Part shown: one piece after another, positions 3,487 to 46,789 of the stretch
Numbering within the stretch: position 1 is the first letter of the stretch
How the letters are laid out: the number at the start of each line of letters is the position of its first letter
Assembly (NCBI GenBank): GCA_965214775.1
Contig: OZ243974.1
Span: 608,001-672,000, forward strand
Length of the DNA: 64,000 nucleotides
Direction: 5' to 3'
Source of the DNA: Nitrosopumilus sp.
Lineage (GTDB): Archaea; Thermoproteota; Nitrososphaeria; Nitrososphaerales; Nitrosopumilaceae
The notes under the pieces: generated by a model
Told to the model about the DNA's origin: nothing
The model's input: only the letters and a program-made list of their open reading frames with translations
The model's database searches: none
Made by a program: the position numbers and the translations under genes

Positions 3487-6400
3487 CCAGGGCCGTCACT
3501 CCCTGCCTCTCCCTTTCTTCCAGGGTCTCGAAGATCTTGTGGATCTTCGGGCTCCTTGACCACACGTGACACTGCTCAAACCCCAGTCTTGGCCACTTTG
3601 TCATGTTGTACCTGACATGCTCGGGGTGGCTCTGGACTTCTGCGGCAGACTCTATCTCCACGCTTATCGGCGTCTCGTTATAGTAGTCATAGGCGACAAG
3701 GTCCGTCCTGTCCTGCCCCTTCCTGATCCTCTGGGAGGCCAGGGTTACAAACATCCCCTTCTTCAGATACGTGTCAAATATCTTCCTGGTGACTGCCTCT
3801 ATCTCCTGTGCAGACCCGATCTCTGCAAAATCCAGGTCAAAGTATGTCCTTTTGGAGCTTTCGGTGAGCTCGTACGGGGACAGCCTGTTTTCGGGCTCCG
3901 TCTTTGCCACCAGTTTGCGGGCCACCAGATCCTTGAGGACCTTGAGGACCTCGGACCTGTTTGAGACCCGGAGCCGGGAGGCCATGTCCACCTGCTGCAT
4001 GGGCTTTCCTCCCCCTCCTCCTCCTCCCAGCAGCATCAGCATTATCCTCCACTCCATGTGCGTCGGAAATCTGACGGATATGCTCTCAAGCCACTTGTTC
4101 CTGTTTGCGGCAGTCTGCCTGACAATCGTGTCCTCCACCGTTCCCCTGCCGTACAGGGCAAGCTGCTCGGCGAGAAACTGCCCATACGCGTCTCGCCTGT
4201 CAGGGGCTCGGGGGGCATGTTGAGCCAGAACTGTATCGGGGGCGGCTGTTCCTCGCCCGGAGGCGATTTTTCCCGTATGGTCCAGTGAAAGTATTCCTGG
4301 CTTGCAAACTGCTGCATGAGCTCCTTTTGGAACTGGGGATCCCATATCTGTGATATTCTGGAGGCGTCCTTGCCGTTGACCTTGCCGATCAGCTGGGTTC
4401 CGGAGTTTCCCGTAATCAGTCCCAGCTGCTTGTCGCTGATCTGCTCTGTGGTCTGGTGTGACAGGATCAGCCCCAGTCCCAGGGATCGCGCCTGCTCCAG
4501 CATCAGCTGCAGCACCTGGAGATCCTTGACTATCTGGAACTCGTCCAGGGCAAGGATCACCTGGGTCCTGTTCTTCTCGTCGGGGATCCTGTTTGCGCGC
4601 TCCTGGACGGTAAACCACAGCTTCAGGATGAATGCCTGCATGGCCAGGGGCTGCACGTGGTGGGGCATGTTGAGCGGGGATATCCTGACGACCGTGTACC
4701 TGCCGGACCTTATTATCTCGTTGAAATCGACCGTTCCGTGCCTTACGGAGAACATTCTTTTCAGGACGGGATCCGTGGCAAACTGCTCTATCCTGTTTAG
4801 CAGCGGGGTAAACGCATCCACCTTCAGGGTTGCGATACTCTCAAGGGCCTGCTCCATCTCCGTGTCCGGGGTCCCGAATGTGTCCATTATCTTTGGCAGC
4901 GCGTCGTTCTTGTCGCGCTGCAGCCGCAGTATGATGTCATGGATGTCAAGAAACGTGGGCGCGTCATGCCTCATGTATATGTAAAACAGCAGCGCGCGGA
5001 ATATCCTCTCCATCTGGACAAAGCTGGCAGACTGCTGGTACCACTCCTCGATGGTCTTCATGAAATAGCCCACGTACCTGGACACCACCTCCTCGCGCTC
5101 GCGCGGCCGGTGCGCGGGCAGCTCCAGCGGATTGATTGAGAATCGGGTCTGCTGCGGATCCAGAAAGTGAATCCTGTTGTCGTCCAGGGTGTCGGGCTCA
5201 CACTGCTTGATGAACTTGTGCGAATCATCGCCCTTGGGATCTACATACACGAACGCGTTGGGAAACTCCCCGGAATTGTTCCACATCTCCAGATGCTTTG
5301 CAAGAATCCTGATGAGCGATGTCTTGCCGGAGCCTGATGCGCCCACGGCGTACACGTGGTTTGCAAAGTCGCCGGTGGATATCACTGCAGCATCAATGTC
5401 TTTGGATTTGCTGATCGCCCCCCATAGCGCACTCCAGTCAAACGTCTCGGACGTCCTTGGCTTGAAGAATCCCAAGCTCGAGCCGATCTTCTCGGAAGGC
5501 TTGGCGGGAATCGCGACTCCCCGCGTGGTGCTTATGTTCGGGGTAAACGGGTTTGGCAGGTGTATGAACAGCGGTATCTCCGACAGGTTCAGTATCAGAA
5601 ACGGCAGCGGCGTCCGCTCCCTGTACCCGCCAATCCAGCCCCTCTCAAAGTATCGCGCAAACGCCCCGTCCAGAAACGGTCCCGGGTCGGGCAAAAGCCT
5701 GGACTCGAACATCCTGATTCTCTGATGTTTCTGGGAATCACCGCGGATTCTGATCAGGGGTGCCTTCTTCTTCCTGCCCTCGGAATAGAACTCGCCGTAC
5801 TTGTACCGGAACTTTGTGAGATGCTCGTGTCCGGAGCGGATGTTCTCAAGCGGAAGCGCCTCTATCTCGTCAAAGTGCAGGTCGATGTCCGAGTCGCTCT
5901 GTATCACGCCCCTGATGCTCATCAGCATGTGCGCGCTCTGCATCTTCAGCGTGGCGTGCTTTTGCAGTCCGGTATAGTTGTTGGTAAAGTCGTATCCCAT
6001 CTCAGGGTGGTCGTGCGGCTGCCTGTCGGGATGCATCAGTATCTCCGTGTTGGACAGGTACCTGCCGCGCCTTATCTCGATGTTCTTCTCATCCAGGCGG
6101 GTCACGTGCCTGCGCAAGAACGCGTTAAAGCTGTAGTGCCTGAATGCAAACTGTATCCATGCGTATTTGGACAGCTGGATCGTGTTTGCGATCTGGGTTA
6201 TTATCTGGTGTGACTTTGTCTGGTCAAATACTGCGGTATAGTGGCCGTGATAGGTCCCCACGTCAAACACCTGGTACTCTGACTTTGCGTCAAACCATTC
6301 CGGCGTGATCCTCCTGAGATCCTCGAACGCGGCGTTTGGGTACATGTTTGCAAACGCCTGCTTGAAGCTTGGGAGGTCCTTGGACTCCCCGACCAGGACG

Positions 6401-6624
6401 AACTGGAGCCGCTTTTCCGTGCTGTCCCACCACATCTCAAAGCTTCTGATGCCTGCGCTTACAAGGCCGCCCGCGGACAGCACCGCCTCCTTTTTGTCCA
6501 TGGTGATCGGGATCATTACGGAGCATGCGGCCAGCCTGTTAGGCGCTGCAAGAAATTTCGTTATGCCGTCCAGCTGGCCCTTCTGCTTTTTCGTATTTGC
6601 AAGATGCCATCGCCGCGAGCCCAA
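3479..6624 (-). pseudogene. virD4: VirD4/TraG-like (HerA-FtsK superfamily) coupling ATPase with C-terminal wHTH and PD-(D/E)xK-like domain, split by a -1 frameshift near 4190-4215 (about 1048 aa if rejoined)
   Basis: Walker A GASGSGKT, VDPKGD, FSINPL, Walker B LALDEFQ and ARSLGLGLILSHQ in ORF 4042-6624. Protein-like sequence continues in the frame of ORF 3479-4618 from DAYGQFLAEQ. The frameshift may be real or a sequencing error. Confidence 0.8.
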
Positions 6625-8327: not shown

Positions 8328-8388
8328 ACAATGCAAGGCGTCAGGGCAATTTAAGGGGCAGATGACCTGCGTTTGGGATCCATAGATG

Positions 8389-10892: not shown

Positions 10893-11543
10893 TCATGGCA
10901 GCAGCAGCGACGACACTACAACGCCCAAGACCACTGCTGCCGTCATGAACGGGAATGCGGGCATTGCCCATGTCACAAACACGTCGCGGCGCGTCTCGTA
11001 CTCCGAATCCGGGTCAGGCGTTCCAAGGTCGATCATCCTCTGCCCCGACTCTGATTTCTCCGCACAGAACGTGAACCGCTCATGCTGCCGCCTCCTGTGC
11101 ACCGAATAAAACGCCGCGGCCTTGACGTGCCATGGCGCATCGACGCCCGCATAGAGCCTGCGATGATACAGGTCCTCCAGGTTGTACCGCAGGTTGTAAA
11201 ACAGCGCGGCCACGTGCTCCAGTACCAGGCCCCCGAGGAACATTGCGGCGGGATTCATCACCCCGAACGACACGGGACACACCACGCAGCTGGACAGTAT
11301 GGCAAGCACGTCGGCCTCGCCCATCGGGAAGAGCCTCCATGCCAGGAGGGCCAGCGCCCCTCCCACCCCCATCGAGAACAGCACAAAGGAGTCCACCGCA
11401 CTCCAGTCAAGCACGTATAATGCGGCTCCGGCGGCCCCTCCCACTATCCAGATATGGTCCGGGATCTCCCGCGTCCGGACATCGTGATACGAGGCGGCCC
11501 CGAGCATCGCAAGCAGCATGGCAAGGCGCAGCATCTCCAGCAT
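10893..11543 (-). CDS. Prepilin/prearchaellin peptidase (A24 family, PibD/FlaK-like)
   Basis: Catalytic Asp motifs YHDVRTREIPD and MGEADV; multi-TM; C-terminal VTWAMPAFP. Confidence 0.88.
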   Translation of the reverse strand: MLEMLRLAMLLAMLGAASYHDVRTREIPDHIWIVGGAAGAALYVLDWSAVDSFVLFSMGVGGALALLAWRLFPMGEADVLAILSSCVVCPVSFGVMNPAAMFLGGLVLEHVAALFYNLRYNLEDLYHRRLYAGVDAPWHVKAAAFYSVHRRRQHERFTFCAEKSESGQRMIDLGTPDPDSEYETRRDVFVTWAMPAFPFMTAAVVLGVVVSSLLLP

Positions 11544-12381: not shown

Positions 12382-13434
12382 TGTCTTATACAGAAATTAG
12401 GTCCGCCTAAGATAAGGCGTACGATCGCTGACTATTTCAGGCTGTACCGATCAGATAAAGACATGACAAGAAAGATGTCGGACAAAGAGATCAGGTATAT
12501 CGTCAAGGGACGTAATGCCGGAAAGAGCGCCACGTCGCTGGCCCGTGACATGAAGGTGACGCCACGGCACGTGAGGAGGATTTACGCCAGGTACCGCCGG
12601 ACCGGAAAGATGCATGTGCAACAAAAGGCTGGAAGAAAGGCCGCACCGCAGCCCGCGGCAGGCCAGGTGCAGGCAGTCTTGGACATGCACTGTATAGAGC
12701 ACGTGGGCGTGATGCGCACTGCCATGCGCCTGCAGGATGCAGGTCACATTATAAGCTACAACAGCGTATATCGGATAATGAAGGAGCAGGGACTCGTTGC
12801 CGCATCAGATACCAAGTCGGGCCAAAAGAAATGGCTGCGCTATGAGCGCAAGTACTCCAACGCAATGTGGCACGTGGACTGGCACGAAATGAAGGATCCA
12901 CGCCTGAGAGGGCTCAAATTAGTCACGTTTTTGGACGATTCCTCCCGGTGTGTCACGGCGGCACGGACGTTTGCAGATGCCACATCAGAAAACGTGGTGA
13001 TAACACTCAGGGAGGCCATAGGCAGGTTTGGCAAGCCGGCCACCATACTGTCTGACAACGGCAGGTGTTTCAACGGCGGCCGCAGCAAGAAGAACATGCC
13101 ACGCGGGACGTGGACGCCGACTGCCTTTGAGGCCGAGCTGCTGGATCGGGGCATCGGGCTGATAAACTCCAGGCCGTACCATCCGGAGACCAACGGCAAG
13201 TTGGAACGGTTCCACGGCAGCATAGAGGCTGAGATCCGCCACTATGAGAGCTTGGATGCATACATCAAGTATTACAACGAGCGCAGGCTACACTTTGGGC
13301 TGGACATAGCCCACCGCCAGACACCCATCATGGCGTTCTCGGACAAAACTGCCACAGAAGCGATCAGGAAATCCGACCCAAAATGGATGGAGAGGGACAT
13401 CAATGAATAGCGGACATTATTTCCATATAACACA
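12382..13434 (+). mobile_element. IS481-family insertion sequence, 1053 bp, 25-bp imperfect TIRs, 15-bp target-site duplication
   Basis: TGT...ACA ends; TIRs 12382-12406 and 13410-13434 (20/25 match); direct repeat tcgcccacaagcgag at 12367-12381 and 13435-13449. Confidence 0.93.
12463..13410 (+). CDS. IS481-family DDE transposase (rve integrase core)
   Basis: WHVDW, FLDDSSR, ILSDNG, RPYHPETNGKLERF, YNERRLH motifs; N-terminal HTH. Confidence 0.93.
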   Translation: MTRKMSDKEIRYIVKGRNAGKSATSLARDMKVTPRHVRRIYARYRRTGKMHVQQKAGRKAAPQPAAGQVQAVLDMHCIEHVGVMRTAMRLQDAGHIISYNSVYRIMKEQGLVAASDTKSGQKKWLRYERKYSNAMWHVDWHEMKDPRLRGLKLVTFLDDSSRCVTAARTFADATSENVVITLREAIGRFGKPATILSDNGRCFNGGRSKKNMPRGTWTPTAFEAELLDRGIGLINSRPYHPETNGKLERFHGSIEAEIRHYESLDAYIKYYNERRLHFGLDIAHRQTPIMAFSDKTATEAIRKSDPKWMERDINE

Positions 13435-14360
13435 TCGCCCACAAGCGAGTACGTCGAGTGCATCTCAGTCGCGTCAAAGAGCCGCCCGGTCTTTTTGTGT
13501 ATGACCATGTCGGAGGTGACGTCCTTTCTGGAGATGAATATCAGGTTCGGATCATCGGCGATGAACCTTTCTGCGTTCCTTACGGTCTCCCTGTCCGGCT
13601 TTTTCTTGTCCTCCCCCTCCTTGGACGCTATGCGCTCCTCGGCGGCAACCGTGTCCTTCTTCCTTTCAAAGTCGATCAGGAGGGTCTCTACTGCATCCGG
13701 CGCGGGCCATGCGGACTTTGCGGCGGACCTTATCTTGGGTACCGTATACGAGGCAATCTCGGCGGCGGCTGCCTCCTGCTCCCCTGGATCTATCCTTGCG
13801 ATCTTTGTGATGTAATACGTGGGAATCACGACGCTGGAAAGGCTGCCCGATACCTGGTCTGCCATGTTCAGGAGTACGCCTTTTGCCCCCTCGCCGATGT
13901 CTGCATGGAGCGCGTCAAGGAGTTCCGGCCGCTTGTCTAGCCACAGGATCCCGTCTATTGCGGCCCTCTTGACTCCGGACTTTTCCATAAAGTCGGCCAC
14001 ATAGTGAAGCCTCAGCGGATCCACGGCCTGGGGGGTAAAGCTCCTGTGGACGTTATCGGTTATCATCTCGACGATGGAGGGGTGGTCGGTTATCACCGCC
14101 CGGATGGCGCGGATCCCGGCCCTCTTCATTGCGGCGACTGACTCAAAGTCGTTCATCACGTACAGCTCCCCGTCCACCCTGCCAAGCAGTACGGGGGGAA
14201 TCTTCCCGGGACTGTTCCTGGCAACGCCCGTCAGGATGTCTGTCAGCTTCCTGGATGTGTTGCGTATGTGTACGGGCATGTCCTTGATCCGGGACAGGCT
14301 GACCTCCTCCTCCTCTGCCATGACCTGATCCGGGCTCTGGACGCTTTGCATGCGCGGCAT

Positions 14361-15071
14361 CTAGCGGACCCCCATCTCGCTCACCGTGAGCCGTACGGCC
14401 TTGACTTCCCTGCTTGTGCTGCCCCCGAGTATGGCAAAGTTCCTCAGTACCCGGTTCTTGAACCTGTCATACCCGTCGGGATCATCCTCGAAGTGCTTGC
14501 GCTTTGATGACATCTCCTGGTTCAGCCGGTACTCCACGGATTGTCCGTCGTTCGTGTCGACTCCAAGCCTCACGGCGTCCTCGTGCATCTCGGATATGAC
14601 GCCGAGCATCTTTGGCGTCTTTTTGACGCACAGGACGACGGATATGGCCTCCCGTATGTCCTTTTCTGGTACGAACTGGCAGGACTCCCTGCATGCGACG
14701 TATATGGCAAAGGCCGCGCACTTTGCCCTGGTATGGTGCGTTCTTGCGTGCAGCGTGTCGTATATATTCCACGCCCTGTGGCGTATGTGCTCCACGAGCC
14801 CCAGCTTGCTGCATATGTTTGAAAAGTCAGACGAGTTCCGCGGGTTGCCGATGTGGATGTTCCGGTTGATCACCTTCATGTCCCCGGGATCCCCGCCGCT
14901 CTCCACCTGGTGGTACAGCATGGGCCTGCTCTCCGATGTCACGCACGACCTGTCCGGAATCCTCTCCTCCAGCACGACGCCGCACCTGCAGACGGACTCG
15001 CCGTCGTACGTAGTCACGATCCTGGAGGGATCGTCGTGGCGGCATGTGATTATGAGGCCGTATCGCTGCAT
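14361..15071 (-). CDS. Truncated transcription initiation factor IIB (TFB) paralogue
   Basis: Zn ribbon CRH...GESVCRCGVVLEE; first cyclin repeat FSNICSKLGL...AAFAIYVACRE; only about 60 aa follow, so no complete second repeat. Confidence 0.8.
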   Translation of the reverse strand: MQRYGLIITCRHDDPSRIVTTYDGESVCRCGVVLEERIPDRSCVTSESRPMLYHQVESGGDPGDMKVINRNIHIGNPRNSSDFSNICSKLGLVEHIRHRAWNIYDTLHARTHHTRAKCAAFAIYVACRESCQFVPEKDIREAISVVLCVKKTPKMLGVISEMHEDAVRLGVDTNDGQSVEYRLNQEMSSKRKHFEDDPDGYDRFKNRVLRNFAILGGSTSREVKAVRLTVSEMGVR

Positions 15072-15094: not shown

Positions 15095-15219
15095 GATCTA
15101 TTTATCTTGGCTGGAAAGTATGCCGAATGGATCAACCGTTTGGATCAACCGTCATGCCCGGCCGTCCGGCGGCAGGCAGCTGCCGCGGCGGTTTTTAACG
15201 TATGCGGGCATGAAGGGAC

Positions 15220-19426: not shown

Positions 19427-19858
19427 TCACGGATGGTTCTTCCCATACACCACGCTGCATTCCTCCACGGAGCCGTCCTCGGAGGTTATCGTCGCCCTTA
19501 CCATGTGGGCAGGGTCTGCAACCGATGCGGCAAACGTACCCGACGGCTTCCACGAGTCCCCCGGGTCAAGAGCCGTCCCGTTGAGTCCGTGTACGGTACC
19601 GTCGTCATCGAGGAACCACACCGCTGCAGAGTCGACTGTCACGGTTCCCGTGTTGTATATGGACGCGGCAAAGTACGCCCGTCCCGCCCCGGTTTCGTGC
19701 AGCGCGATATCGGATATCTCGCATCCTATGGATCCCGTAAGGTTGCCCACCTGTCCCAGCAGTACAGATGCCACCGCCGCCGCCATGACAGAGGCCAGTC
19801 CTATCAGGAGCGACACCGCGACTAGGCTGTGGATGCCCCGGCGTGTCTTGGTAATCAA
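19427..19858 (-). CDS. Archaeal type IV pilin
   Basis: Class III signal peptide KTRRG|IHSLVAVSLLIGL; IYNTGTVTV motif. Confidence 0.85.
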   Translation of the reverse strand: MITKTRRGIHSLVAVSLLIGLASVMAAAVASVLLGQVGNLTGSIGCEISDIALHETGAGRAYFAASIYNTGTVTVDSAAVWFLDDDGTVHGLNGTALDPGDSWKPSGTFAASVADPAHMVRATITSEDGSVEECSVVYGKNHP

Positions 19859-21684
19859 GGCCCCTCCCCGGGCGGGGACGTGTCAAACAGCGTTCTTTCC
19901 TCCCCGGATGGCTCGAACCTCACGTGCAGGCGGTACCTCTTTGTGAGCAGTATGGCGTTTCCGGGATCAAATGACTTTATCCGGGAGACCTCGTGCGGCG
20001 ACAGATTGAGTATCTTGGCGGCGCTGTCGGTGGCCTCCTCCTCCATGTTCAGCAAGATCTTGGTCTCCATGTTGTCCACGATGCGGCTCGTCCCGCCCCT
20101 GTCCTGCGCAATGTCGTCTATGTTCTGCGATACGAACAGGAACTTTACGTTGCGCTTTCTTCCCATGCGGACTATCTGCTCTATGTACTTTTGGGCGCCC
20201 TCCATCTTGAAGATCATCCACGCCTCGTCCAATAAAATTATCTTCTGTACGTTCTGCGGCATGGCCTCTATCCTCTTCCATACCCTGCTCAGGGCGAGGA
20301 CCAGCAGCATTATCTCGTGCGGCTTGCCGTCTGCCTTTCTCATCGATATCACGAGCCGGTCCGATATCTTCGGGGTTCCGCGCATCATCCTGGCAAGCGG
20401 CCCGTCCACCAGGTCGTCAAGCCACTTTTGCGAGCCCGGATTGTCCGCAAGGGTATCGTACAGCTCGTCGACGCTGCCCACCCTGTCAGAGAACCTGCGG
20501 AACTGCTTTATCACGTCCTCGGGCGCCCGGGTCACGCCGCCCAGTATGTCGGCCGCATCCGCTGGCTCCAGCAGCTTGAAGGGGTCGAGGCCCAGCTCGG
20601 CGTCCCCGCCGGTTATCTGCATCCGGTCAAGGCCAAGCTCGGGGGCGATGTCGTGGTACTCGCCCATCGGGTCTATGACAAAGCACAGGCTCTCCGGGTA
20701 TTTCTCAAGCAGCCTGCGAAGGATCATCTTTGCCGTAAAGGACTTGCCCGAGCCCGACGTCCCGATTATGGCCATGTTGTAGTTTGTCCTCTTCTGAAAG
20801 TCAAATATCACGGGCGCCCCGCTGTCGGTGTTTATGCCCAGCACCAGGCCGTTTGGGACCTCCAGCATGTCGCCTGACACCATCGAGTAGAGGCACGACA
20901 TGCTTCCCAGGTCGAATGTGAGCGTCCTTCCCCACCCCTCCGCGAGCATGGCCCCCTGCCTTGCCATCTGCGTGCAGAACTCCTCGCCCTGGATGCTGGC
21001 GGCATCGCGCAGCTCCCGGACTGCCGTCCGCAGTCCCCTGAGGTCCGGCGCCACCAGTATGCATACCACCCTGCACCGGAACAGGCCAGAGTGGTTCTGC
21101 CTCATCGACGTCTCTGCGCGCTCTAATTTTTCGTACTCGGCTGCCGCAGACTTTGAGCGCAGCGACGACTCGTAGACCAGCTCCTTTCTCCTGCGTATGC
21201 CCTCAAGCGCGTCCCGGTGCCGTACGGGCTCTATCCAGATGTCCACCTCGTGGCATGCGGGAAATATCCCCGTCGCAATCCACCCCCACGCAATCTCGTA
21301 GGGGAGGCGGCGCAGCGTAAAGCACTTGGCCACAGCCGTCACCCCGTCGCCGATGTCGACGTCCATGTGGCGCCATCCCTCGCGCAGTATCCTTATCTGC
21401 CGGTGCCCGCCGATATCGGCGGTGTACTCGTAGCGCAGCGCGTCAAATATCCGGTTGAGCGGCTCGCCGCTTGAGACGTACAGCTGCAGTATGGGCATCC
21501 CCACCATCTGCCCGTCCACCGGGATTGTCAGCATCTTTCTTGCCAGCCTTATCCGAATCGGCTTGGATATCACGCGCAGCAGGTCAAAGAACTCGCCCAG
21601 CTTCTTGCGCTGCTTTTGCTCGGGAAGCGTGACAAAGTTTGTCGGCGTTACGGTATAGTGGTACGAGAATCTCACATCAGTCAA
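19855..21684 (-). CDS. virB4: VirB4-like conjugation ATPase (likely start GTG 21675)
   Basis: NMAIIGTSGSGKS, VIDPMGEY, ILLDEAW, GRKRNVKFLFVSQ. Confidence 0.88.
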   Translation of the reverse strand: MTDVRFSYHYTVTPTNFVTLPEQKQRKKLGEFFDLLRVISKPIRIRLARKMLTIPVDGQMVGMPILQLYVSSGEPLNRIFDALRYEYTADIGGHRQIRILREGWRHMDVDIGDGVTAVAKCFTLRRLPYEIAWGWIATGIFPACHEVDIWIEPVRHRDALEGIRRRKELVYESSLRSKSAAAEYEKLERAETSMRQNHSGLFRCRVVCILVAPDLRGLRTAVRELRDAASIQGEEFCTQMARQGAMLAEGWGRTLTFDLGSMSCLYSMVSGDMLEVPNGLVLGINTDSGAPVIFDFQKRTNYNMAIIGTSGSGKSFTAKMILRRLLEKYPESLCFVIDPMGEYHDIAPELGLDRMQITGGDAELGLDPFKLLEPADAADILGGVTRAPEDVIKQFRRFSDRVGSVDELYDTLADNPGSQKWLDDLVDGPLARMMRGTPKISDRLVISMRKADGKPHEIMLLVLALSRVWKRIEAMPQNVQKIILLDEAWMIFKMEGAQKYIEQIVRMGRKRNVKFLFVSQNIDDIAQDRGGTSRIVDNMETKILLNMEEEATDSAAKILNLSPHEVSRIKSFDPGNAILLTKRYRLHVRFEPSGEERTLFDTSPPGEGP

Positions 21685-33446: not shown

Positions 33447-35801
33447 TCAGCGCCTGTTCTTTATCCTGTCGTATACCAGGTACGCGGGAATCATCGCAAG
33501 CGCAAACAGCGCAAGCGGGACCATGTGTTCTGGCACCAGCCGGCGCGGCTCTTCGGGAACAAACTCCGGGATTATTACATGCGCGGTTCCGCCCCACTCG
33601 TTTTCTGCCGTAACCTGGATTGCGGAATTATCCTGCACGTTTATGGTGCAGAATACACCGCAGTCCACGCTTGTCTCCTCGCCGTTAAAGTACAACACAT
33701 CTATCCTGCCAAACTCTGGTGGCGCCGTGACGGTCACGTGGCCGCGCTCCCGCGATGCCGCAAGTGTGTTATCCTGTGCAAGGTTTGCCGATATGACCAT
33801 GTCACTTCCAAAGTTCGCATAGTCATACCCGTACTGCCTTGTCATACCGCCGGCAGTAACGCTTACCGACAGCGGCGAGGGCGAGCCCAGTCCCACGTCA
33901 AGCGGCACCTCGAGTCTGGCATCCTCAGAGTTTGCAAGGTAGAGCGGTGCCAGGTCTGCGATGTCCCTTCCTGCCACGTCCTGGTTCCCCTCGATTGGAT
34001 ACCTGCCAAACTCGGAGCTGACCCGGCGCAGCTTTACATCAACTGCGCCCAGGCCGGATGCCGAGTACTGGATCGGATGCGTATCGTTTGCGACTATGAT
34101 CCCCAGGCCGGCATCGCCGGTGTCGTGTGTCACCTTCTCGTGGAGATACTCAGGGATCGTCTGGACACCATCTGCAGGCCCTATGCTGACGGCTACCGGC
34201 ATGTTGTCCGCAGATCCGCCTGCGCCGACGGACTCTATATGGAGCATGGTGTGCAGGAACGGCTCGGCAAACCTGTACTCGTAGTGTGAGAGATACGTGT
34301 CGTGTCTTCCCGCAAAGTCACGCGATATCAGGGTGTTGAACAGCGTGACGTTCTCGTACCTGGGGCCCGACGGCCCCGCGACCGTATCGAGCACGGGATA
34401 GTCAAAGTGTATCTTGCAGTATCCTGACCTTTTCATCATGGCAGTGCCTGGCTCCCCTGTCACGCACGGTATGACATCCGGGTATGACGACGGCGACAGC
34501 ATGTGCCCGTGTCCCCCCGAGTGCGGGATTATCCCCACGTTTACGGCCTCCGACCACGACAGCGTCTCGTTGAAGGCTACCGGATGCCACGGGTCAAGGC
34601 CGAAGCCCGCGTATGCAAAGTCGTTTATCTTGCTGCGCCTGTCCTCGTGCAGCAGTCTCGCGTCGTCAGGCCCCCCGCCAAGCGAGCCGAAATAATGCAG
34701 CGCCACCGAGGCGCGGTTCTGATACGAGGTCCGCATGTCGTCAGACAGCAGCGAGTACGGATATTCCGTGTACTGCGGCAGGTACCGTACGATCAGCGCG
34801 TCTATCTCCTCGTCGTCACGGTCCAGGAGAAGCTCGCCGTTGTTGTACACCCTGACGTCGTAGCCTATCTCGGCCCGTCCCAGGTGTGGCTCGCCGGTTG
34901 CGTTGTATATCGTGATATCGTCGCCGTTGCCGAGGCGCCAGAGGGATGAGGCAAGCCCGGGGTGTTCCAGGGTTATGTCGCAGGAGTTTTGGCCGCACTC
35001 CCGTGATGCCTCCGTGTGCAGGTCCGTGCTCCTGTCGGTCTCAAAGTGTATCGTGTTGGCGCGATGGTCCTTCCACAGGAGCTGCGGCACATGCAGTACG
35101 GTGACCGGATCCCAGAGATAGTATGTCCCGTCAAGGTTGCGGGCCTCGTACCCGTCCGCGTCATGCAGGATCTCCCTTGTCAGGATTACGTCCAGGGCGG
35201 GCTTGAGGATTGAAGGCGTCATGACGGCGGTCCTGGTGACTGGCACGTTTCTGCACCTTATGCCCCCCTCGCCGCTGCTTGTGCAGACCCTCTTGATCGC
35301 AGTCACCGACTGCTCCATGTGCTCGGTCCTGTCCACGCAGGGCCCCGGTCCGGTGCAGGAGAACCCCGCATCCCCGGAGACGGTGGCCCTGCCAAAGAAG
35401 CATCCGGAGTACTGGCCGCTCCTTTCGCACCCGGATTCTATGACATCTCTTATCCTGTCCACAGAGTCGGGATCAGTGTACCCGTCATCCCCCACGCGTC
35501 CCGGACGCGGGGGCCCCGATACGTGGAGGCCTATTTCCAGCCCGTCCGTATGCCTGATTTCGTGCGTGTATAGATTCCTGCACTGGGGGCCTGCCGAATA
35601 GCTTACCAGATAGTAAAACGAGTCGCCCGGATAAAACGTCCCGTCGGGATTGTTCCTGGGACTGTTGTCGTAGTGTACGGGCAGCATCGTTCCCTGCACG
35701 CGCAGGCTGCACGGAAACGACGTGCCGTGGTACGCGTGTGCCGCCTCGGCTGCAAGAAATACCGCAACGAGTGCAAGCAGGCAGATGAGGATCTCCTTCA
35801 A
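33447..35801 (-). CDS. Large secreted, C-terminally anchored surface protein (Cys-rich N-terminus)
   Basis: Signal peptide MKEILICLLALVAVFLAAEAAHA; C-terminal TM plus basic tail; repeated NxDGTxY motif. Confidence 0.8.
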   Translation of the reverse strand: MKEILICLLALVAVFLAAEAAHAYHGTSFPCSLRVQGTMLPVHYDNSPRNNPDGTFYPGDSFYYLVSYSAGPQCRNLYTHEIRHTDGLEIGLHVSGPPRPGRVGDDGYTDPDSVDRIRDVIESGCERSGQYSGCFFGRATVSGDAGFSCTGPGPCVDRTEHMEQSVTAIKRVCTSSGEGGIRCRNVPVTRTAVMTPSILKPALDVILTREILHDADGYEARNLDGTYYLWDPVTVLHVPQLLWKDHRANTIHFETDRSTDLHTEASRECGQNSCDITLEHPGLASSLWRLGNGDDITIYNATGEPHLGRAEIGYDVRVYNNGELLLDRDDEEIDALIVRYLPQYTEYPYSLLSDDMRTSYQNRASVALHYFGSLGGGPDDARLLHEDRRSKINDFAYAGFGLDPWHPVAFNETLSWSEAVNVGIIPHSGGHGHMLSPSSYPDVIPCVTGEPGTAMMKRSGYCKIHFDYPVLDTVAGPSGPRYENVTLFNTLISRDFAGRHDTYLSHYEYRFAEPFLHTMLHIESVGAGGSADNMPVAVSIGPADGVQTIPEYLHEKVTHDTGDAGLGIIVANDTHPIQYSASGLGAVDVKLRRVSSEFGRYPIEGNQDVAGRDIADLAPLYLANSEDARLEVPLDVGLGSPSPLSVSVTAGGMTRQYGYDYANFGSDMVISANLAQDNTLAASRERGHVTVTAPPEFGRIDVLYFNGEETSVDCGVFCTINVQDNSAIQVTAENEWGGTAHVIIPEFVPEEPRRLVPEHMVPLALFALAMIPAYLVYDRIKNRR

Positions 35802-35840
35802 CGACCATCAACGGACGGCAGGTTAAAAGGCCGGAGGCAG

Positions 35841-38729
35841 TCAGTCCTTCTTCTGAGGATCCGGGCTCCTGCCGCCGTCCCTTTTTGCAGATATCCCGGG
35901 AATGAGGCACGCCACCCGGTCTATCACATTCTTCATTGCCCATCCCGGCCCCGACATCCTGTACAGCACGATGGCGCTTCCTGCAAGCAGCGGTGCGGCA
36001 ACCATAACCATCAGGTACGTGTAATCGGTCCTGTATATGGCAGTTATCTCCATGTTCTCTTCTGCTGCAAACGTTGCTGTGGCAGAGCCGTGCTCCAGCC
36101 CGTCCCACCTCTCAAAGACCTCGCGCACCAGAAACGAGGCAACGTGCCTTTCGGGCGCGCTGACTGTCACTGCCTGGCCCACACCGTACACTCCGGAGCC
36201 CTCCCCGTCAAATACGGTTATCAGCACCTCCTGGCGGTACACGGCAGTTATCGCAATGTCCCCGTCCGGCTCCAGTGACAGCACGTTGTTGCGGTATGTC
36301 GTCTCGCCGTTTACCACTGCATGATCAAAGGAGTATCCCCCGGTATCAGAGGAGTGGTGCTCGGGGAACTTGACTTTCACGGTTCCCGGCCGGAACTCCG
36401 TATGGTACGGGGGCCCGACGACTGCCGAGTCCGGGCCCGCGGTAACCGTGAACATCGGATGTATCCGCATGCCGCCCGAGTCCGTGACGTCGACGTCCAT
36501 GAGGTATATGTGGAGTATCTGCAGCTCTGCAGACAGCATGACCGGCTCGTACCCGGGCCTGGTCGCAAGTATGCTTACGGTGGACTCGCCCTCGCTGTCT
36601 GCGGTTATCACGAATACCGAGTCAGAGACGCGCTCAAAGGGCTGCCTCGTGTCTATCGAGTACTGCGCGTCAATGTCGTTCAGTACCTCGATGCGCGCCG
36701 TCTCCCCCACCCTGAGCCTGTCGCGATCCACGTCAAGCTCCGCGCGCATTATATTGGCAAACCCCGATATCCGTGAAGCGTCGGCCCCGGCGCCCGATAT
36801 CGCAGACACGTTTCCAGCGCCGGACTCGCGCAGCACCATGTGCGCGCCTGCGGACAGCTCAAGCGGTGTAGATATCCTTACAGAGTCTGCCTTTCGTATG
36901 GGGATGCCCGCCTTGTCTGTCTCGTGTACCACAAACGGAAACTCCTCGCCGATATGCACGGATTCTGGCAGCAGCAGCTCAAGGGAGGTCGCCACCCCCG
37001 CAGGAATGATCTCGGAGCTTGCCGATCCCACGCCGTCAAGTATCGCCGTGATCTGCGCCGGCCCGTCCAACATTCCGTCCAGTATGGCAGAGCCCGAGTG
37101 GACAGGCGGGATCGGGCCCGAGCTTATGCTCCCGGGCGCCACGACGTAGATCTCTGCGTCCCTTCCAAGGATCTCTGCTGCGTCTATCAGCGCGCCGTCC
37201 CCGTCGACTACAGATATCATGGCAAGGTCCTGCCACGTGTCGCCAAGCACCGGGAGCGCCGATATGCCGAGCTGGAACCTGCTGCCGTGCGGCTCGGTGA
37301 CGTTTACCTGCGACGATGCAGACTCGAGTCCCTGTCCGGAAAGCGACATCTCGTAGCTTCCGGTGCCGGTCCCCGTGATCTCAAACTCGGCGGCGTTTGT
37401 GGGCATTATACCGTGTGCCATTACAAGGGCGTCCGCGTGCTCCAGCCCGTATGGCGAGGAGACATAGACCGTCCTGCCGTCGGTCTCGACTGGCGCAAGT
37501 ATCATGTCCTCGGAGATGACCGTCTCCAGACCACCCGACTCGTCCAGCCTTGCGTCAAGATACCTGTCCCTGTCTACGCTGTATGTGGCTGCAACCCCCC
37601 ACGCGGCCCCGTCGGTGACCTCGGGATATATCCACGACCGTATGAGGTTGGCCTCCGGATCCCCCTCCTCCTCCTTCTCCTGCCCTTCCGATATCATGTA
37701 TGCGTGTCTCCCGTCGATGTCGTCGTGCATGCCGTCAAGCCTGGCGGCCCCGACAAACATCATGTCCTGCCCCATGCCGAGCTCCGGTATAGTTGCAGAT
37801 ATGACGGCATGGCCGGCAGAGCCCGTGTATATCATCCCGCGTGCGACTCCGTCGACCAGGGTTACGGCAAGCCCGTCAGAGTCAAAGGCCGGGCCGGCGT
37901 GCGTCCTTGCGACGCCGTGGTTGTCCGAGTGCAGAAACGCCCTTGCCGTGCCCGGCGGCTTGAGGGGGGCGCCGTCCTTTTCAAGCCAGACGTAATAGTA
38001 CGCAAAAGAGTCCGGCATCGCGATGTCCGGCGCGATCCCGACTCTCACCGTCACCCCCTCCCGGATCCTCTGCATCTCGGCGTGATCCGGCTGCAGCCCG
38101 GCGGCGCTTGCAACTATCTTGCCTGACCCCTCAGTATCCATGTAAAACGAGTCATAGAACGTGCCGTTGGCAATGTGCACGCCGGAAGGCACCTGAACTG
38201 ATCCCGATGCGGCAAGCGTGACCCAGATTGCCTCGTCCAGTATGGCCGGGAGGCCGTGCTCGTCTACGACTGCTATGTATCCGATCATGGAATCGGCGCG
38301 GGTGGCGTTGGCAGGCAGGACCAGCTGCAGCCTTGCGGGGGAGGCAGTCTCAGGGTATACCGTGCTGTCTGCGGAATGGAGAGCCCCGTGTACTGTAGCA
38401 AAGACCTCGACGGGGCCGCCGCCGTCGCCTGCAGGCGTCATCTCAAATATGCCGTGGTTGTGCAGCGAAGGTATGTACAGGCTCTGCGGCATTCCCAGAT
38501 CCCCGCTTGAGGAGAGCAGTACCAGGGATCCGCCGGGAGAGGCCTCGGGCAGGATCACTATTCCATGATAGGTCTGCCCCGCAATCATGTGGTGCGGGAC
38601 CCACAGTACCTCCCCGTATACGACGGCCATGGGGGCCGCACCACACAGCAGCAGCAGCGGTATTGCCGCAAGTACCGTTCCCTGCACAGTCATCTGCCTG
38701 CAAAAAGATACCATGGATTCAAGCCTCAC
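35841..38729 (-). CDS. Large secreted multi-Ig-domain surface protein with C-terminal TM anchor
   Basis: Signal peptide; acidic beta-rich repeats; GSGVYGVGQAVTVSAP...FERWDG repeat-type domain; TM helix. Confidence 0.8.
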   Translation of the reverse strand: MRLESMVSFCRQMTVQGTVLAAIPLLLLCGAAPMAVVYGEVLWVPHHMIAGQTYHGIVILPEASPGGSLVLLSSSGDLGMPQSLYIPSLHNHGIFEMTPAGDGGGPVEVFATVHGALHSADSTVYPETASPARLQLVLPANATRADSMIGYIAVVDEHGLPAILDEAIWVTLAASGSVQVPSGVHIANGTFYDSFYMDTEGSGKIVASAAGLQPDHAEMQRIREGVTVRVGIAPDIAMPDSFAYYYVWLEKDGAPLKPPGTARAFLHSDNHGVARTHAGPAFDSDGLAVTLVDGVARGMIYTGSAGHAVISATIPELGMGQDMMFVGAARLDGMHDDIDGRHAYMISEGQEKEEEGDPEANLIRSWIYPEVTDGAAWGVAATYSVDRDRYLDARLDESGGLETVISEDMILAPVETDGRTVYVSSPYGLEHADALVMAHGIMPTNAAEFEITGTGTGSYEMSLSGQGLESASSQVNVTEPHGSRFQLGISALPVLGDTWQDLAMISVVDGDGALIDAAEILGRDAEIYVVAPGSISSGPIPPVHSGSAILDGMLDGPAQITAILDGVGSASSEIIPAGVATSLELLLPESVHIGEEFPFVVHETDKAGIPIRKADSVRISTPLELSAGAHMVLRESGAGNVSAISGAGADASRISGFANIMRAELDVDRDRLRVGETARIEVLNDIDAQYSIDTRQPFERVSDSVFVITADSEGESTVSILATRPGYEPVMLSAELQILHIYLMDVDVTDSGGMRIHPMFTVTAGPDSAVVGPPYHTEFRPGTVKVKFPEHHSSDTGGYSFDHAVVNGETTYRNNVLSLEPDGDIAITAVYRQEVLITVFDGEGSGVYGVGQAVTVSAPERHVASFLVREVFERWDGLEHGSATATFAAEENMEITAIYRTDYTYLMVMVAAPLLAGSAIVLYRMSGPGWAMKNVIDRVACLIPGISAKRDGGRSPDPQKKD

Positions 38730-40933
38730 ATGCTGGTGTTTATGCTGGCATGCCGTATGGATGCAGTGGCCGAGGCGCGCCCGTGCTGCGCATGCTCGTG
38801 AAACCCGGGGGGCAGCGGCGGCACGCTTCCGTGCGCCTCTATCTGGTTGTAAAAGTAAAACTCTACAAAGTCAGCAGCCTCGACTGGAACAGACATGGAG
38901 TCAAAGACCAGTATGTCCGGATACGAGAATCGCGCCGTGTGAAACGTGGAGTGGCTCCCGCCGGCGCCGGACCGGTGGGACTCATCAGGTGTATCGCTGA
39001 AGAATATCTGCGTCTGCCCCCTGCCGTCGATCTCGCGCAGCTGGCCGTTGACGTACACCTCTATCCACAGCGTCAGCGGATCCCTTGGCCGCGGCGGGGG
39101 CGGGGGCGGCGGGGTGTTCTCAAAGTACGTCCTCGTGTTGGTAATCTCCGAGACGCCGGAGATCTCGGCCCTCACGTGCGCCTTCATGCTGCCGTCCGTC
39201 GGGGCCACCGCATACGCGACTATTCCCGCAGTGGACCGGATGCCGTCGACAAACCTGTCCTGCGATACCGAGATCGTGCTCGATACCGGATCGGTGATCC
39301 TCAGGCCGGTCCCGCCCAGCACGTCTGCTATTCCAAGGTACGCGTCCGCCCCGTTTATCGACATGGATATGCCCCCGTATGTGGGAATCACCGGGATCAG
39401 CAGCGAGTCGCCGCCCGAGTAGCTGCCGTCAAGATACGGCAGCGCAAGGGCGTCAAGCGACGTGCCGTTTATCGTTACGGTGCCTGTCACCGGCATCTTG
39501 ACGTATGCGTGGACCGTGTACACGGTGTCCTCGGCGCCTCCTCCTCCTGCCGCCACGACAAAGGACTCGGAGTTTGCGTGATCCATGACGATCATCCCTG
39601 TATCATCGCCTGCGTCCGTATGTACTAGGGCGCCCCGGTACAGGTGCAGTGCCAGCTCCTCGCTCTGGACGGGCGTCGAGAACGACCCGACTGTTATTGC
39701 TCCGTCTGATATGCCGGCAGATACGGTGTCTGCGCCGCTGGTAATCCTGTATGCGGTGCCGTCGGGGACTCCCCCGACACTGACAAAGTCGGCATCAGAT
39801 ATCGTATGCGCCCATATCCTGGAGGACTCTTCGCCGCCGGTGCTGTCGACTACCAGGTACGCGTCGCGCAGGCCGCCAAACTCCGCATCAAAGGCGCCGG
39901 CAAGTGGGGGCCCGGCCTGCCGGACAGGGAGCGTGTCATGTATGGTATGCTCAAAGCCCGTCACCCTGTTGTAGTGCGTGATGAGCGTCTTGGCGCCGGG
40001 CCTCTTTATCGAGTTCGTATCCATGGTCCACGGATCCGTTGTGTCTCCCGTGACTGCGTGATAGCCGCTCGGGTGGGCCTGCACGATCAGGTGGGCAGGC
40101 GTGCTTATCTCGTGGGAGCCCGTCTGCACGTATCTTCCCTTGCAGCACTTGCCATGATATACGGTCAGGGAGGCCTCCTGAACGAACTCAAAGACTGCGG
40201 ACTTTACCGAGTCGTCCACGGATCCCACCAGCACCTCGAGCCCGCTTGTTCCGGGATCTGCTGCCATGCTATGTATCAGGAACCCCTCGCCCGTATGCGG
40301 GATTGCCATCAGATCGTACGGGGAATGAACAACCCTCATCACCGTATCGCCGCCTGCCTGGCCCCGCATGTGGATCTGCTCGGTCGTATTGTGCAGCCGA
40401 AGTATGATCCGTCCCTCCCCTGACAGCGTTATGCCGTCATCGTCTGCCACCACGCTGACGCTGCCATGAACGGTGCGGGAGTCTGCGTATCCGAGTATGT
40501 TTGCAGGCTCTGCGGTTCTGCGCTCAAGTACGCCGCCTGCAAGCTCGTACCTCGAGTACGCGTCGGGGATCGGATACGAGTCGGCGCCGTCCTCCTCAAG
40601 TATCGCGACAAACCGGGTGTTGGACGGAACCGCAGTATACGGCCTCAGCGACTCCTCGGTGCCCGTCGCACCCGGGCCGTGGATCATGGTGCCGGCCACG
40701 CCGTGGTGCACAAGCCGCGAGTTTATTCCGAGCCCGCCTATCATGGGGTTGCTGCCCCCGTCGTCGTCTGCCGCATCCGGCCCCCGTGGCGGATCCATGT
40801 CTGCAACAAAGACGTTTCCCCTGGATGTCACTATCTCTATGGTCTCCCCGTATGCTGTTGTTGCTGTTGCTGCTGCCGCCGCAAGGCAGCAGACCGACGC
40901 CAGGACTGCGGCCATGCACAGGATGTGGATCAT
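38726..40933 (-). CDS. Large secreted adhesin-like protein
   Basis: Signal peptide; IVTSRGNVF pilin-like motif near the N-terminus; poly-Pro linker; 4-nt overlaps with neighbours. Confidence 0.78.
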   Translation of the reverse strand: MIHILCMAAVLASVCCLAAAAATATTAYGETIEIVTSRGNVFVADMDPPRGPDAADDDGGSNPMIGGLGINSRLVHHGVAGTMIHGPGATGTEESLRPYTAVPSNTRFVAILEEDGADSYPIPDAYSRYELAGGVLERRTAEPANILGYADSRTVHGSVSVVADDDGITLSGEGRIILRLHNTTEQIHMRGQAGGDTVMRVVHSPYDLMAIPHTGEGFLIHSMAADPGTSGLEVLVGSVDDSVKSAVFEFVQEASLTVYHGKCCKGRYVQTGSHEISTPAHLIVQAHPSGYHAVTGDTTDPWTMDTNSIKRPGAKTLITHYNRVTGFEHTIHDTLPVRQAGPPLAGAFDAEFGGLRDAYLVVDSTGGEESSRIWAHTISDADFVSVGGVPDGTAYRITSGADTVSAGISDGAITVGSFSTPVQSEELALHLYRGALVHTDAGDDTGMIVMDHANSESFVVAAGGGGAEDTVYTVHAYVKMPVTGTVTINGTSLDALALPYLDGSYSGGDSLLIPVIPTYGGISMSINGADAYLGIADVLGGTGLRITDPVSSTISVSQDRFVDGIRSTAGIVAYAVAPTDGSMKAHVRAEISGVSEITNTRTYFENTPPPPPPPRPRDPLTLWIEVYVNGQLREIDGRGQTQIFFSDTPDESHRSGAGGSHSTFHTARFSYPDILVFDSMSVPVEAADFVEFYFYNQIEAHGSVPPLPPGFHEHAQHGRASATASIRHASINTSM

Positions 40934-41271
40934 TGCGCATCCTCCGGGTTTAGCAGTTCCGCATCAAGCGGCACCTCCAGGCCCCGTGCAGGCGCAATCG
41001 TGCTGTCGGTCTTTTCCCGGTGTGTCATATGGCCGTCATCGTCCAGTATGCGGATCTCCATTATGCGCACCGGCACGGAGCCCGGATTCTCCAGCGTGAT
41101 CCGGCCGCCCCCGTACGCGGCATCCAGCTCCTCGCGCGTCCGCTCTGACTGCATCTCTGCGATCCTCTCGGCCGTCTGCGAGTACCGCAGCTGATCCCCA
41201 GAAAACGACACGATCATGCCTGCGGCAAGCAGCGATACGGTCACCACGCCGACTATCACCAGTGGGTTCAT
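40930..41271 (-). CDS. Archaeal pilin-fold protein without a charged leader
   Basis: MNPLVIVGVVTVSLL; SERTREEL and ITLENPGSVPVRIMEIRI motifs; TAAATA 26 nt upstream. Confidence 0.72.
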   Translation of the reverse strand: MNPLVIVGVVTVSLLAAGMIVSFSGDQLRYSQTAERIAEMQSERTREELDAAYGGGRITLENPGSVPVRIMEIRILDDDGHMTHREKTDSTIAPARGLEVPLDAELLNPEDAQ

Positions 41272-41385
41272 TGCATACATAATGTGGGTTCTATTTAGGG
41301 GCCGCAAGGAGGTTCCCCCCGTCCCGGATTCCGGGCATGCCCGTACCAGGATCGCGTCAGATCCGGTGCAGAAGGGATGATCTTG

Positions 41386-41507
41386 TCCCGCAGGTGGACT
41401 ACAGTCGCCGACGTCCGGGACAAAATGTTCCCGCAGGTGGGCTACAGTCGCCGACGTCCGGGACAAAATGTTCCCGCAGGTGGGCTACAGTTGCCGACGT
41501 CCGGGAC
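41386..41507. repeat. Tandem array of a 43-bp unit (tcccgcaggtgggctacagtcgccgacgtccgggacaaaatgt), about 3 copies
   Basis: Units start at 41386, 41429 and 41472. Confidence 0.95.
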
Positions 41508-41565
41508 GCTTTTGGAATTGTATTGTGGCCGTCCGGATTCGGCCCTTGGTGTTTTAGGAAAATCC

Positions 41566-42255: not shown

Positions 42256-42272
42256 AAGAAAAAAGAAATGAT

Positions 42273-42464
42273 TTAAAGATCCGATTTTTCATCTCCGATC
42301 CAGATGGTCCAGTCGCCCATCTTTTTTGTGTCATCAATGATTATGATCTTGCAGTGCCTGCATGCCCGGCATGGGAGCCGGATTCTACGTCTCTTGGATC
42401 CCCTGGCAAGAATGACCGGGGTGCTGATAGAGCCCGTCTCGCACGATGGGCACCGCTCAATCAT
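42273..42464 (-). CDS. Small zinc-finger protein
   Basis: CPSC...CRHC. Confidence 0.65.
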   Translation of the reverse strand: MIERCPSCETGSISTPVILARGSKRRRIRLPCRACRHCKIIIIDDTKKMGDWTIWIGDEKSDL

Positions 42465-46540: not shown

Positions 46541-46591
46541 TTCACAACGGATTTTTTCGGTTTAAGGGGGGTTTTCATCGCTTGAGATGGA

Positions 46592-46665
46592 TGGACCGGA
46601 AGGGATTTGAACCCTTGATCCGATGCATGCCATGCACCTATCCTACCAGACTAGACGACCGGCCC
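46592..46665 (-). tRNA. tRNA-Ala (anticodon GGC); integration site
   Basis: GGGCCGG/CCGGTCC acceptor with G3:U70, anticodon loop ATGGCAT, TTCAAAT T-loop. Confidence 0.95.
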
Positions 46666-46789
46666 ATAATCAGAATACTGATTGATTAAGACTTTTCAAA
46701 TTGGTTATTAACGTTTAGCGGTGATGTTGAAAATCTACTTTTAAAATTAACACAATATATTTAACCCTCAGAACAGTTGTTGTGTCGTT

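Follow-up and report, generated by a model that had tools for sequence, protein, structure and literature searches.

Divergent homologues of the basal transcription factor TFIIB have been described on two integrative and conjugative elements (ICEs) and on a provirus, and an altered promoter specificity has been suggested for them (Abby et al. 2018, PMC5797428). According to Krupovic et al. 2019 (PMC6563490), TFIIB homologues occur on every thaumarchaeal ICE, in most cases with a ParB-like gene directly downstream. Both the TFIIB-ParB arrangement and the idea that such proteins act in the manner of sigma factors are already published in these two papers. Type IV pilus loci have been reported to contain TFIIB homologues as well, including a single-cyclin form in the Thermoproteales (Makarova et al. 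2016, PMC4858521). Finally, TFB3 of the Sulfolobales is described as having a short C-terminal domain with an essential coiled coil, no B-finger and four cysteines, and it is thought to require another DNA-binding factor (Feng et al. 2018, PMC6101594; Schult et al. 2018, PMC6101591). Here we analyzed a stretch of 64,000 nucleotides from a Nitrosopumilus sp. genome (assembly GCA_965214775.1, contig OZ243974.1, positions 608,001 to 672,000), called the window throughout, in which an ICE-like island carries the gene of a shortened TFB, in the following termed the short TFB:

14361..15071, minus strand: gene of a short TFB/TFIIB paralogue, 236 amino acids (aa), ATG at 15071, reading frame intact

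According to its published description, the thaumarchaeal ICE TFIIB is, like the short TFB, encoded on an ICE and followed at once by a ParB-like gene, probably within the same operon (PMC6563490). The published ICE TFIIBs are filed under arCOG01981, a group that is described as having two cyclin domains (PMC4858521), whereas the short TFB is without a full second one. The truncated architecture of the protein and a palindrome which its promoter has in common with the radA promoter of the host appear to be new. In the main text of the two papers on ICEs (PMC6563490, PMC5797428; supplements excluded) we found no mention of a truncation, a missing helix-turn-helix (HTH), a separate clade or a promoter operator. 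The original prediction, which was made from the letters of the window, had seen here an ICE-encoded truncated TFB resembling TFB3 and possibly acting as a master switch for mating genes.

In TFB/TFIIB the zinc ribbon binds RNA polymerase (RNAP), and the first cyclin repeat binds the TATA-binding protein (TBP) and the DNA just downstream of the TATA box. The last two helices of the second cyclin repeat form the HTH which reads the TFB recognition element (BRE). The layout of the short TFB is as follows:

Residues ~10-35: zinc ribbon
Between ribbon and core: conserved linker of 45 aa
Residues ~80-168: cyclin repeat 1
Residues 179-233: helices of repeat 2, no HTH

Taken as a single sequence the protein gives marginal matches. 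The Pfam TFIIB repeat model PF00382 scores 24.0 bits against a cut-off of 23.6 (residues 84-140), the Pfam zinc-ribbon model of TFIIB misses its cut-off with an E value of 0.082, and a PDB search returned chance matches only. The firm homology to TFIIB therefore comes from profile matches, for which an alignment of 44 diverse relatives of the short TFB was used. This profile matched yeast TFIIB with E 1.4e-10, the TFB core of P. woesei with 3e-6 and the TFIIB zinc ribbon of P. furiosus (1pft) with 2.7e-4. When the same alignment was compared by hhalign with the four TFBs of the host, a probability of 97.9% was obtained over residues 9-143, a span which begins at the ribbon and takes in helices one to four of repeat 1. 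Among the 44 members, 18 match the Pfam model Zn_Ribbon_TF and 12 the repeat model at E<=0.01. The zinc ligands C10-x-H12 ... C28-x-C30 are kept in close relatives; C28 and C30 do not vary across the 44 diverse members, C10 hardly does, and the knuckles of distant members read CxH or CxC followed by CxxC. In the linker, the motif YHQVENGGDPxDM is kept in close relatives and G59 is invariant in all 44 members. The segment from ribbon to core comprises about 45 aa in the short TFB versus about 85 in the host TFBs, and is thus ~40 aa shorter; the hhalign alignment has large gaps there.

The AlphaFold 2 (AF2) model of the short TFB has a mean pLDDT of 74; the values exceed 85 over residues 80-236 and stay under 50 at residues 1-10 and 36-79. 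It shows, in this order, three short strands, five helices (80-168) and three helices (179-233). The best Foldseek matches of the model are all TFIIB or TFB (E 2.7e-5 and weaker). By VIA-align, residues 76-236 were placed on positions 1108-1265 of the P. woesei TFB core (1ais_B, 1108-1300) with a Z of 11.0, an rmsd of 4.2 and 146 aligned residues, and on human TFIIB from 112 to 268-270. Since Z values of about 11 are common among helical proteins, the fold match rests also on the sequence evidence. In the predicted structure cyclin repeat 2 of the short TFB ends after the third of five helices and the BRE-reading HTH is absent; at the HTH the host TFBs show an invariant VT.RNR stretch, which the short TFB does not have. 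Having both the zinc ribbon and the first cyclin repeat, the short TFB is a member of the TFB/TFIIB superfamily. It is not a full-length archaeal TFB, as it has neither a complete second repeat with HTH nor a B-reader/B-linker of normal length. The truncation foreseen in the original prediction, i.e., a zinc ribbon plus one cyclin repeat without a full second repeat, is thus borne out by the profiles, the AF2 model and the structural alignment.

A word-indexed search gave 20 close homologues of 171-269 aa with 46-89% identity. In an exhaustive profile search 129 clusters (representatives at 50% identity) were found at E<=1e-3, 67 of them at <=1e-10 and 12 at <=1e-30. Most of these are 220-260 aa long and match end to end, and it is only among the weakest matches that canonical TFBs of about 300 aa turn up. 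If both searches are pooled, an HTH-like C-terminal motif occurs in only 6 of 148 relatives, all six being weak canonical matches. We then compared 61 sequences in a tree, namely every second family member of 190-300 aa (43), 14 weak canonical matches and the 4 host TFBs, the rest being omitted. All 43 short proteins fall on one side of a branch with an SH-aLRT of 100 and a stem of 1.45 changes per column, and the 18 canonical TFBs, including the 4 of the host, fall on the other. Measured against the 91%-identical copy of a related locus (L010), dN/dS is 0.25 for the short TFB, 0.28 for the neighbouring ParB-like gene and 0.36 for the gene of a 182-aa protein further downstream. Judged from these comparisons, the short TFB is an old clade separate from the four full-length host TFBs and not a recent pseudogene of one of them, so that this objection to the original prediction, already named with it, was checked and fails on the conserved length, the separate clade and the dN/dS value.

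The host genome (G000) encodes four full-length TFBs and one short form only. Within the class the short TFB occurs in 43 of 301 genomes if G000 is counted; leaving G000 aside, it is present in 36/180 and 6/9 genomes of two families and in 0/111 genomes of thirteen other families. The distribution, as read from the genome sequences, is patchy and mobile. A tblastn search of the short TFB against plasmid and phage collections gave no match, and a scan of metagenome contigs with the family alignment gave 56 pattern matches, none of which was confirmed.

Compared by the published descriptions of TFB3, the likeness seen between the two proteins is architectural only. Like TFB3, the short TFB is a shortened TFB with a four-ligand zinc ribbon, without the BRE-reading HTH and with a link to pili and DNA-transfer genes. 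Unlike the chromosomal TFB3, it is borne by an element, has CxH as its first knuckle and retains a conserved linker and a full cyclin repeat followed by three helices. Where TFB3 has its short coiled-coil domain, the C-terminal 157 residues of the short TFB are predicted to form cyclin helices, and the TFB3 landmarks C3, C25 and R145-K146 (PMC6101594) are found in none of the 148 relatives. DNA damage induces TFB3, which is needed to switch on pilus and DNA-transfer genes; for the short TFB, the operator shared with host radA is the one indirect hint of such a role. The proposed resemblance to TFB3 thus holds for the truncation and the missing HTH and fails for the short coiled-coil C-terminal domain. 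Another shortened form, arCOG05559 of Pyrobaculum and Thermoproteus, is described as a TFIIB variant that has a zinc finger and only one cyclin domain and shares its operon with type IV pilus-like genes (PMC4858521). By this description it is set apart from the short TFB, being chromosomal, from another lineage and having as neighbours the genes for RPB8, a membrane protein and an ATPase in place of ParB.

The promoter of the short TFB gene and a second promoter of the island contain these features:

15074-15094: perfect 10+1+10 palindrome (21 bp) CGTACCGTAAATTACGGTACG, 3 nt after the TATA-like box and 2 nt before the ATG
15098-15105, minus strand: TATA-like box ATAAATAG, ~30 nt upstream of the ATG of the short TFB
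15123..15148: two tandem 13-nt direct repeats, CCGAATGGATCAA and CCGTTTGGATCAA, upstream of the TATA-like box
42490-42510: second copy of the palindrome, CGTACCGTACTTTACGGTACG (minus strand), one mismatch, directly after the TATA-like TTTTTATT (42514-42521)
33447..42464, minus strand: pilus-like operon, headed by the gene of a 63-aa CxxC...CxxC protein

The palindrome over the start region, which had been part of the original prediction, is therefore present and perfect; the chance expectation of a perfect 10+1+10 palindrome in the window is 0.00. From the spacing between TATA-like box and ATG the transcript would be near-leaderless, and the palindrome spans positions -2 to -22 of this promoter. 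Archaeal repressors typically block polymerase recruitment at sites just upstream of the start. The 17-nt core of the palindrome occurs at 2 sites in the window if up to 2 mismatches are allowed, against 0.04 expected, and the island has no other long palindrome of comparable quality. The 13-nt direct repeats are not enriched elsewhere in the window (10 matches vs 6.6 expected). In the pilus-like operon, behind the gene of the 63-aa protein, come those of a protein of 229 aa, of a pilin-like one of 178 aa and of proteins of 735, 962 and 784 aa for which Pfam gave no match. A third perfect site is located at G000:C1:~486.9 kb in front of a paralogous copy of the pilus-like operon; here the 19-bp palindrome core is unchanged and the flanks differ. 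This paralogous operon (L043, G000:C1:482000-492000, at ~4900-8700) encodes 63-aa zinc-ribbon, 226-aa and 731-aa proteins behind a promoter with the same operator. Its distance from the window is about 120 kb, and a TFB-like gene was not found elsewhere in the genome.

The core of the palindrome, TACCGTA-N3-TACGGTA, is the same as the sequence ahead of two host genes, radA and the gene of a 115-aa winged helix-turn-helix (wHTH) protein, and it recurs at a third type of locus:

G000:C1:87644-87660 and 423083-423099: operator sites of radA and of the 115-aa gene (homologous loci L045, L053, L058-L087)
G000:C1:1928598, 2576492 and 2115597: operator loci of a small Cys-rich open reading frame (ORF) (L044, L056, L057; also L060-L076)

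RadA is identified by Pfam Rad51 (1e-88), and the 115-aa protein has weak wHTH matches and falls into Atlas clusters named ArnR1-like wHTH. At both genes the chromosomal site is perfect and lies between a TATA-like box and the start codon. In the whole genome G000 there are 11 sites with at most 1 mismatch versus 0 for the reversed control. Three further perfect sites are near the small Cys-rich ORF, trpE and a transposase, and sites with one mismatch stand ahead of a multiubiquitin-E1-like pair and ahead of a 128-aa gene that has a Dam methylase behind it. We extended the search to 81 genomes of the family, one of which is unpublished (G132), and found the exact motif in 58 and the control in 1. 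Thirty sites were sampled, one per genome: radA is the adjoining gene at 12, the 115-aa gene at 9 and a TFB-like gene on another ICE at 1. Among the remaining 8 there are 7 next to the small Cys-rich ORF, and three of these are flanked by a trpE-like gene on the opposite side. The 115-aa gene is present in 67 of the same 81 genomes; motif and gene occur together in 56, the gene stands alone in 11 and the motif in 2, and 12 genomes have neither; these rows are not independent because whole genera are without both. The motif is also present in genomes without a TFB-like match (e.g., G008, G032, G056, G064), and the binder of the palindrome must therefore be a host protein. The wHTH protein of 115 aa, whose own gene carries the operator and would be autoregulated, is the obvious candidate. 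In the literature we found no description of a thaumarchaeal radA regulon, and the motif string was found only in primer lists.

At the small Cys-rich ORF (55-76 aa, MSQI...C..CG...C..H), which is often divergent from trpE, the operator adjoins the upstream side of the TATA box. Two of the G000 copies of this operator are located in a repeat beside a DDE transposase; Rfam gave one sub-threshold miRNA match at three operator-bearing repeat loci, which we take as chance. At the multiubiquitin locus (L054, G000:C1:574000-577500; 535-1963, minus strand) a multiubiquitin gene is followed by a DUF6791-ThiF (E1-like) gene, and the one-mismatch operator stands immediately ahead of the start codon.

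Downstream of the short TFB the island contains a gene cassette, which is interrupted in the window by an insertion sequence (IS):

13434..14360, minus strand: ParB-like gene, native codons 1-309 of 367; the ORF continues to 13272 through IS-derived sequence
~12383-13434, plus strand: inserted IS of ~1.05 kb with rve-family transposase, absent from the relative L010
11627..12175, minus strand: 182-aa third cassette gene, directly after the ParB-like gene in relatives
10893..11543, minus strand: prepilin peptidase (Peptidase_A24), fourth cassette gene

The stop codon TAG of the short TFB abuts the ATG of the downstream ORF 13272..14360. The ParB-like gene is 94% identical to the L010 copy for 309 codons and then diverges because of the rve-transposase insertion. 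The IS replaces the C-terminus of the ParB-like protein and splits off the third gene, so that the operon is broken in the window copy; the intact order in L010 is TFB-like gene, ParB-like gene, 182-aa gene and prepilin peptidase. A TFB-ParB-wHTH operon had been predicted, and of this the abutting TFB and ParB-like genes and the intact order in L010 stand, while the window copy itself no longer has an unbroken operon. We searched 33 loci with the window proteins by tblastn (L010-L042, among them the duplicate pairs L010/L015 and L012/L013 and, as L014, the copy of the window). The ParB-like gene is directly downstream of the TFB-like gene in at least 17 of the 33, down to about 22% identity, and the 182-aa gene comes next in at least 8; both counts are lower bounds since most loci have only 1.5 kb of flank.

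The AF2 model of the ParB-like protein (pLDDT 77.5) matches Noc (1.2e-7), ParB (6.5e-7), KorB of RK2 (8qa9, 1.2e-6) and the pNOB8-like ParB-N (5k5d, 1.8e-4) in Foldseek, and the predicted fold agrees with Noc, ParB and KorB over ~220 columns. KorB and pNOB8 ParB are ParB-family proteins of conjugative plasmids, and KorB is in addition a repressor at palindromic operators. The ParB-like neighbour of the short TFB would share their fold. Unlike them, it has no Pfam ParB domain, as no Pfam match was obtained for 13 members, and no evident CTP-binding motif, and the palindrome of its cassette would be the operator of a host regulon. The profile of the ParB-like family gives weak matches to sulfiredoxin (E 0.019) and to ParB-like nuclease (E 0.92), and the clade of the element is also without the DGHxR-type motif of more distant members. 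For the 182-aa protein, the putative wHTH protein of the original prediction, no Pfam, NCBIfam or PHROG match and only a weak Atlas lead were obtained. We rejected the idea that it is a paralogue of the 115-aa host regulator (BLASTP E 0.14). A complex prediction of the ParB-like protein with the short TFB scored 0.00 against a mark of 0.32 and gives no evidence either way.

We propose a joint explanation for these observations, which we regard as about evenly balanced between holding and failing: the short TFB would be a functional element-borne TFB that works as a co-factor directed by a partner, and its expression would be gated by a host operator. The protein should retain the parts which contact RNAP and TBP/DNA, having lost about 40 aa of the reader/linker and the two BRE-reading helices. 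It would then be unable to choose promoters alone and may act as an element-specific co-factor or as an alternative initiation factor. The DNA specificity could come from a partner, either the translationally coupled ParB-like protein or the 182-aa protein of the cassette. We favour a partner because the DNA-reading part is lost and because the coupled DNA-binding neighbours are conserved; promoter choice through a partner has also been proposed for TFB3 (PMC6101591). Expression of the short TFB would be gated by the palindrome between TATA-like box and start codon, an element which may belong to the operators of a host regulon formed by radA, the autoregulated gene of the 115-aa ArnR1-like wHTH protein and the gene of the small Cys-rich protein. 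A host repressor would probably silence both the short TFB and the pilus-like operon and release them together with radA. From the operator sequences, the short-TFB cassette and the pilus-like operon are likely parallel targets of a host regulator which also controls radA. The pilus-like operon with its same operator thus looks parallel to the short TFB and not downstream of it, which qualifies the master switch for mating genes in the original prediction; the short TFB is probably one arm of a circuit whose switch is the host regulator. The sequence, the predicted fold, the conservation, the synteny and the identity and place of the operator are shown here; we infer the repression, its signal, the binding to RNAP and TBP and the activation of transfer genes.

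LexA boxes are found on mobile elements such as colicin plasmids and the CTX phage, and ICE transfer can be SOS-induced. Like these elements, the island has promoters with the operator of a host regulon that includes the genes of a recombinase and of a putative autoregulated repressor. Unlike the LexA systems, this one is archaeal and has an unrelated wHTH protein as candidate regulator, for which cleavage or a response to damage would be hypothetical. Possibly the Nitrosopumilaceae possess an SOS-like regulon of this type (radA, the 115-aa repressor and the Cys-rich protein), and the ICE has captured its operator to gate the short TFB and the pilus-like operon, so that mating functions are turned on with host recombination; this extension is tentative and in our view rather doubtful. 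If true, SOS-induced conjugation would have a counterpart in archaea, in which a basal-factor paralogue serves as the output stage of the element. The locus offers a testable circuit consisting of an operator shared with radA, a candidate repressor, a short TFB without the DNA-reading part and DNA-binding partners that are conserved. A radA regulon conserved among ammonia-oxidising archaea is suggested by it as well, in a group whose transcriptional regulation is largely unexplored. Should the short TFB turn out to activate, there would be two independent cases in which DNA-exchange machinery is controlled by a truncated basal factor, TFB3 being the other.

Several observations weigh against the proposed explanation. 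We compared the upstream regions at 29 TFB-like loci, and the full operator is present only at the TFB-like genes of the window and of genome G203, where the start of a TFB-like gene with 48% identity is preceded by ATAAATAG and then GGTACCGTACGGTACGGTACC. In the closest relative, G250, only a 6+1+6 remnant is left and a clear TATA box is missing; ahead of the TFB-like gene of AT-rich relatives there are either different palindromes or none. The wiring is therefore lineage-specific and not a property of the family. In G203 (96% complete) the sole operator is on the ICE, and the 115-aa gene was not found with this query. The operator site on the trpE side does not fit a pure DNA-damage reading. 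The genomes are related and not independent, so that the co-occurrence of motif and 115-aa gene overstates the support. The element itself is partly decayed: the ParB-like gene is interrupted by an IS, an IS110 lies at 26.4-27.5 kb, and an attachment (att) repeat was not found in the window. Lastly, a protein with RNAP- and TBP-binding parts and without DNA reading could equally be an inhibitor.

Such an inhibitor would be a decoy which binds RNAP and/or TBP without forming a productive complex and so damps host or element transcription, for example by keeping the element quiet or by redirecting the polymerase. In canonical TFB/TFIIB the reader/linker region is needed for start-site selection and DNA opening, and the short TFB, apart from missing the BRE-reading HTH, is shortened by ~40 aa in just this region. 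We nevertheless consider a decoy unlikely: what remains of the linker is strongly conserved (G59, YHQVENGGDPxDM), suggesting an active role, recruitment agrees better than sequestration with the coupling to DNA-binding partners, which is conserved, and the nearest precedent, TFB3, is described as an activator (PMC6101594). The cassette could alternatively serve partition or maintenance of the element, the ParB-like protein binding the palindrome as a centromere or as a KorB-like operator and the TFB-like protein being an adaptor comparable to the first gene of aspA-parB-parA of pNOB8. ParB-family proteins bind palindromes as dimers, the structural model of the ParB-like protein resembles ParB, Noc, KorB and the ParB-N of the pNOB8 type, a ParM/actin-like gene is located at 7491-8480, and G203 keeps the palindrome though the 115-aa host gene was not found there. 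Yet the palindrome stands ahead of radA and of the 115-aa gene in genomes without any TFB-like match, which makes its binder a host protein, and the missing DGHxR-type motif sets the ParB-like clade of the element apart from its more distant members; a partition module is thus quite improbable.

The decay of the island might also suggest that the truncated TFB gene is a remnant without present function on a dead element, given the two IS insertions, the broken ParB-like gene and the missing att repeat. With its frame intact, a dN/dS of 0.25, a length kept across 129 clusters and a clade of its own on a long stem, this is largely refuted and we regard it as highly improbable. The GC content is 46-62% over ~2 to 46.5 kb of the window compared with 35-46% in the flanks, and the island encodes a VirD4/TrwB-like protein, a VirB4-like protein, a T2SSE ATPase, a T2SSF platform protein, further a prepilin peptidase as well as two transposases:

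4042..6624, minus strand: VirD4/TrwB-like coupling protein
7491-8480, minus strand: ParM/MreB-like actin gene
19855..21684, minus strand: VirB4-like ATPase (TraG P-loop, AAA_10, DUF87)
26397-27527: IS110-family transposase gene
46588..46666, minus strand: tRNA-Ala at the boundary between high and low GC

The short TFB gene is thus located on an ICE-like island, and in this respect the original prediction was right, as shown by the genes of the type IV secretion system and pilus type, the GC shift and the tRNA-Ala at one edge. The MCM, RFC and Hel308-like genes in the low-GC flank mark the window as archaeal. When we looked for an att repeat with the tRNA-Ala region, none of at least 15 nt was found within the window. 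The ORF 45107-46540 beside the tRNA was not called an integrase, since it has no Pfam, PHROG, NCBIfam or PDB match.

Some minor features of the family and of the window may be added. Two distant TFB-like loci, L020 and L026, have other long palindromes upstream, TTTATGGAATAATTCCATAAA at -51 and ACAAATGCTAGCATTTCTAGCATTTGT at -77, which are unlike the radA-type operator. At 8558-10405 (minus strand) the island encodes a 615-aa protein in which Ig-like domains are fused to an Mrr restriction-endonuclease domain, a cargo or maintenance gene. The low-GC left flank contains a Schlafen/AlbA_2-domain protein at 1-1832 and a MazE-like (AbrB/SpoVT) antitoxin-type gene at 2968-3486.

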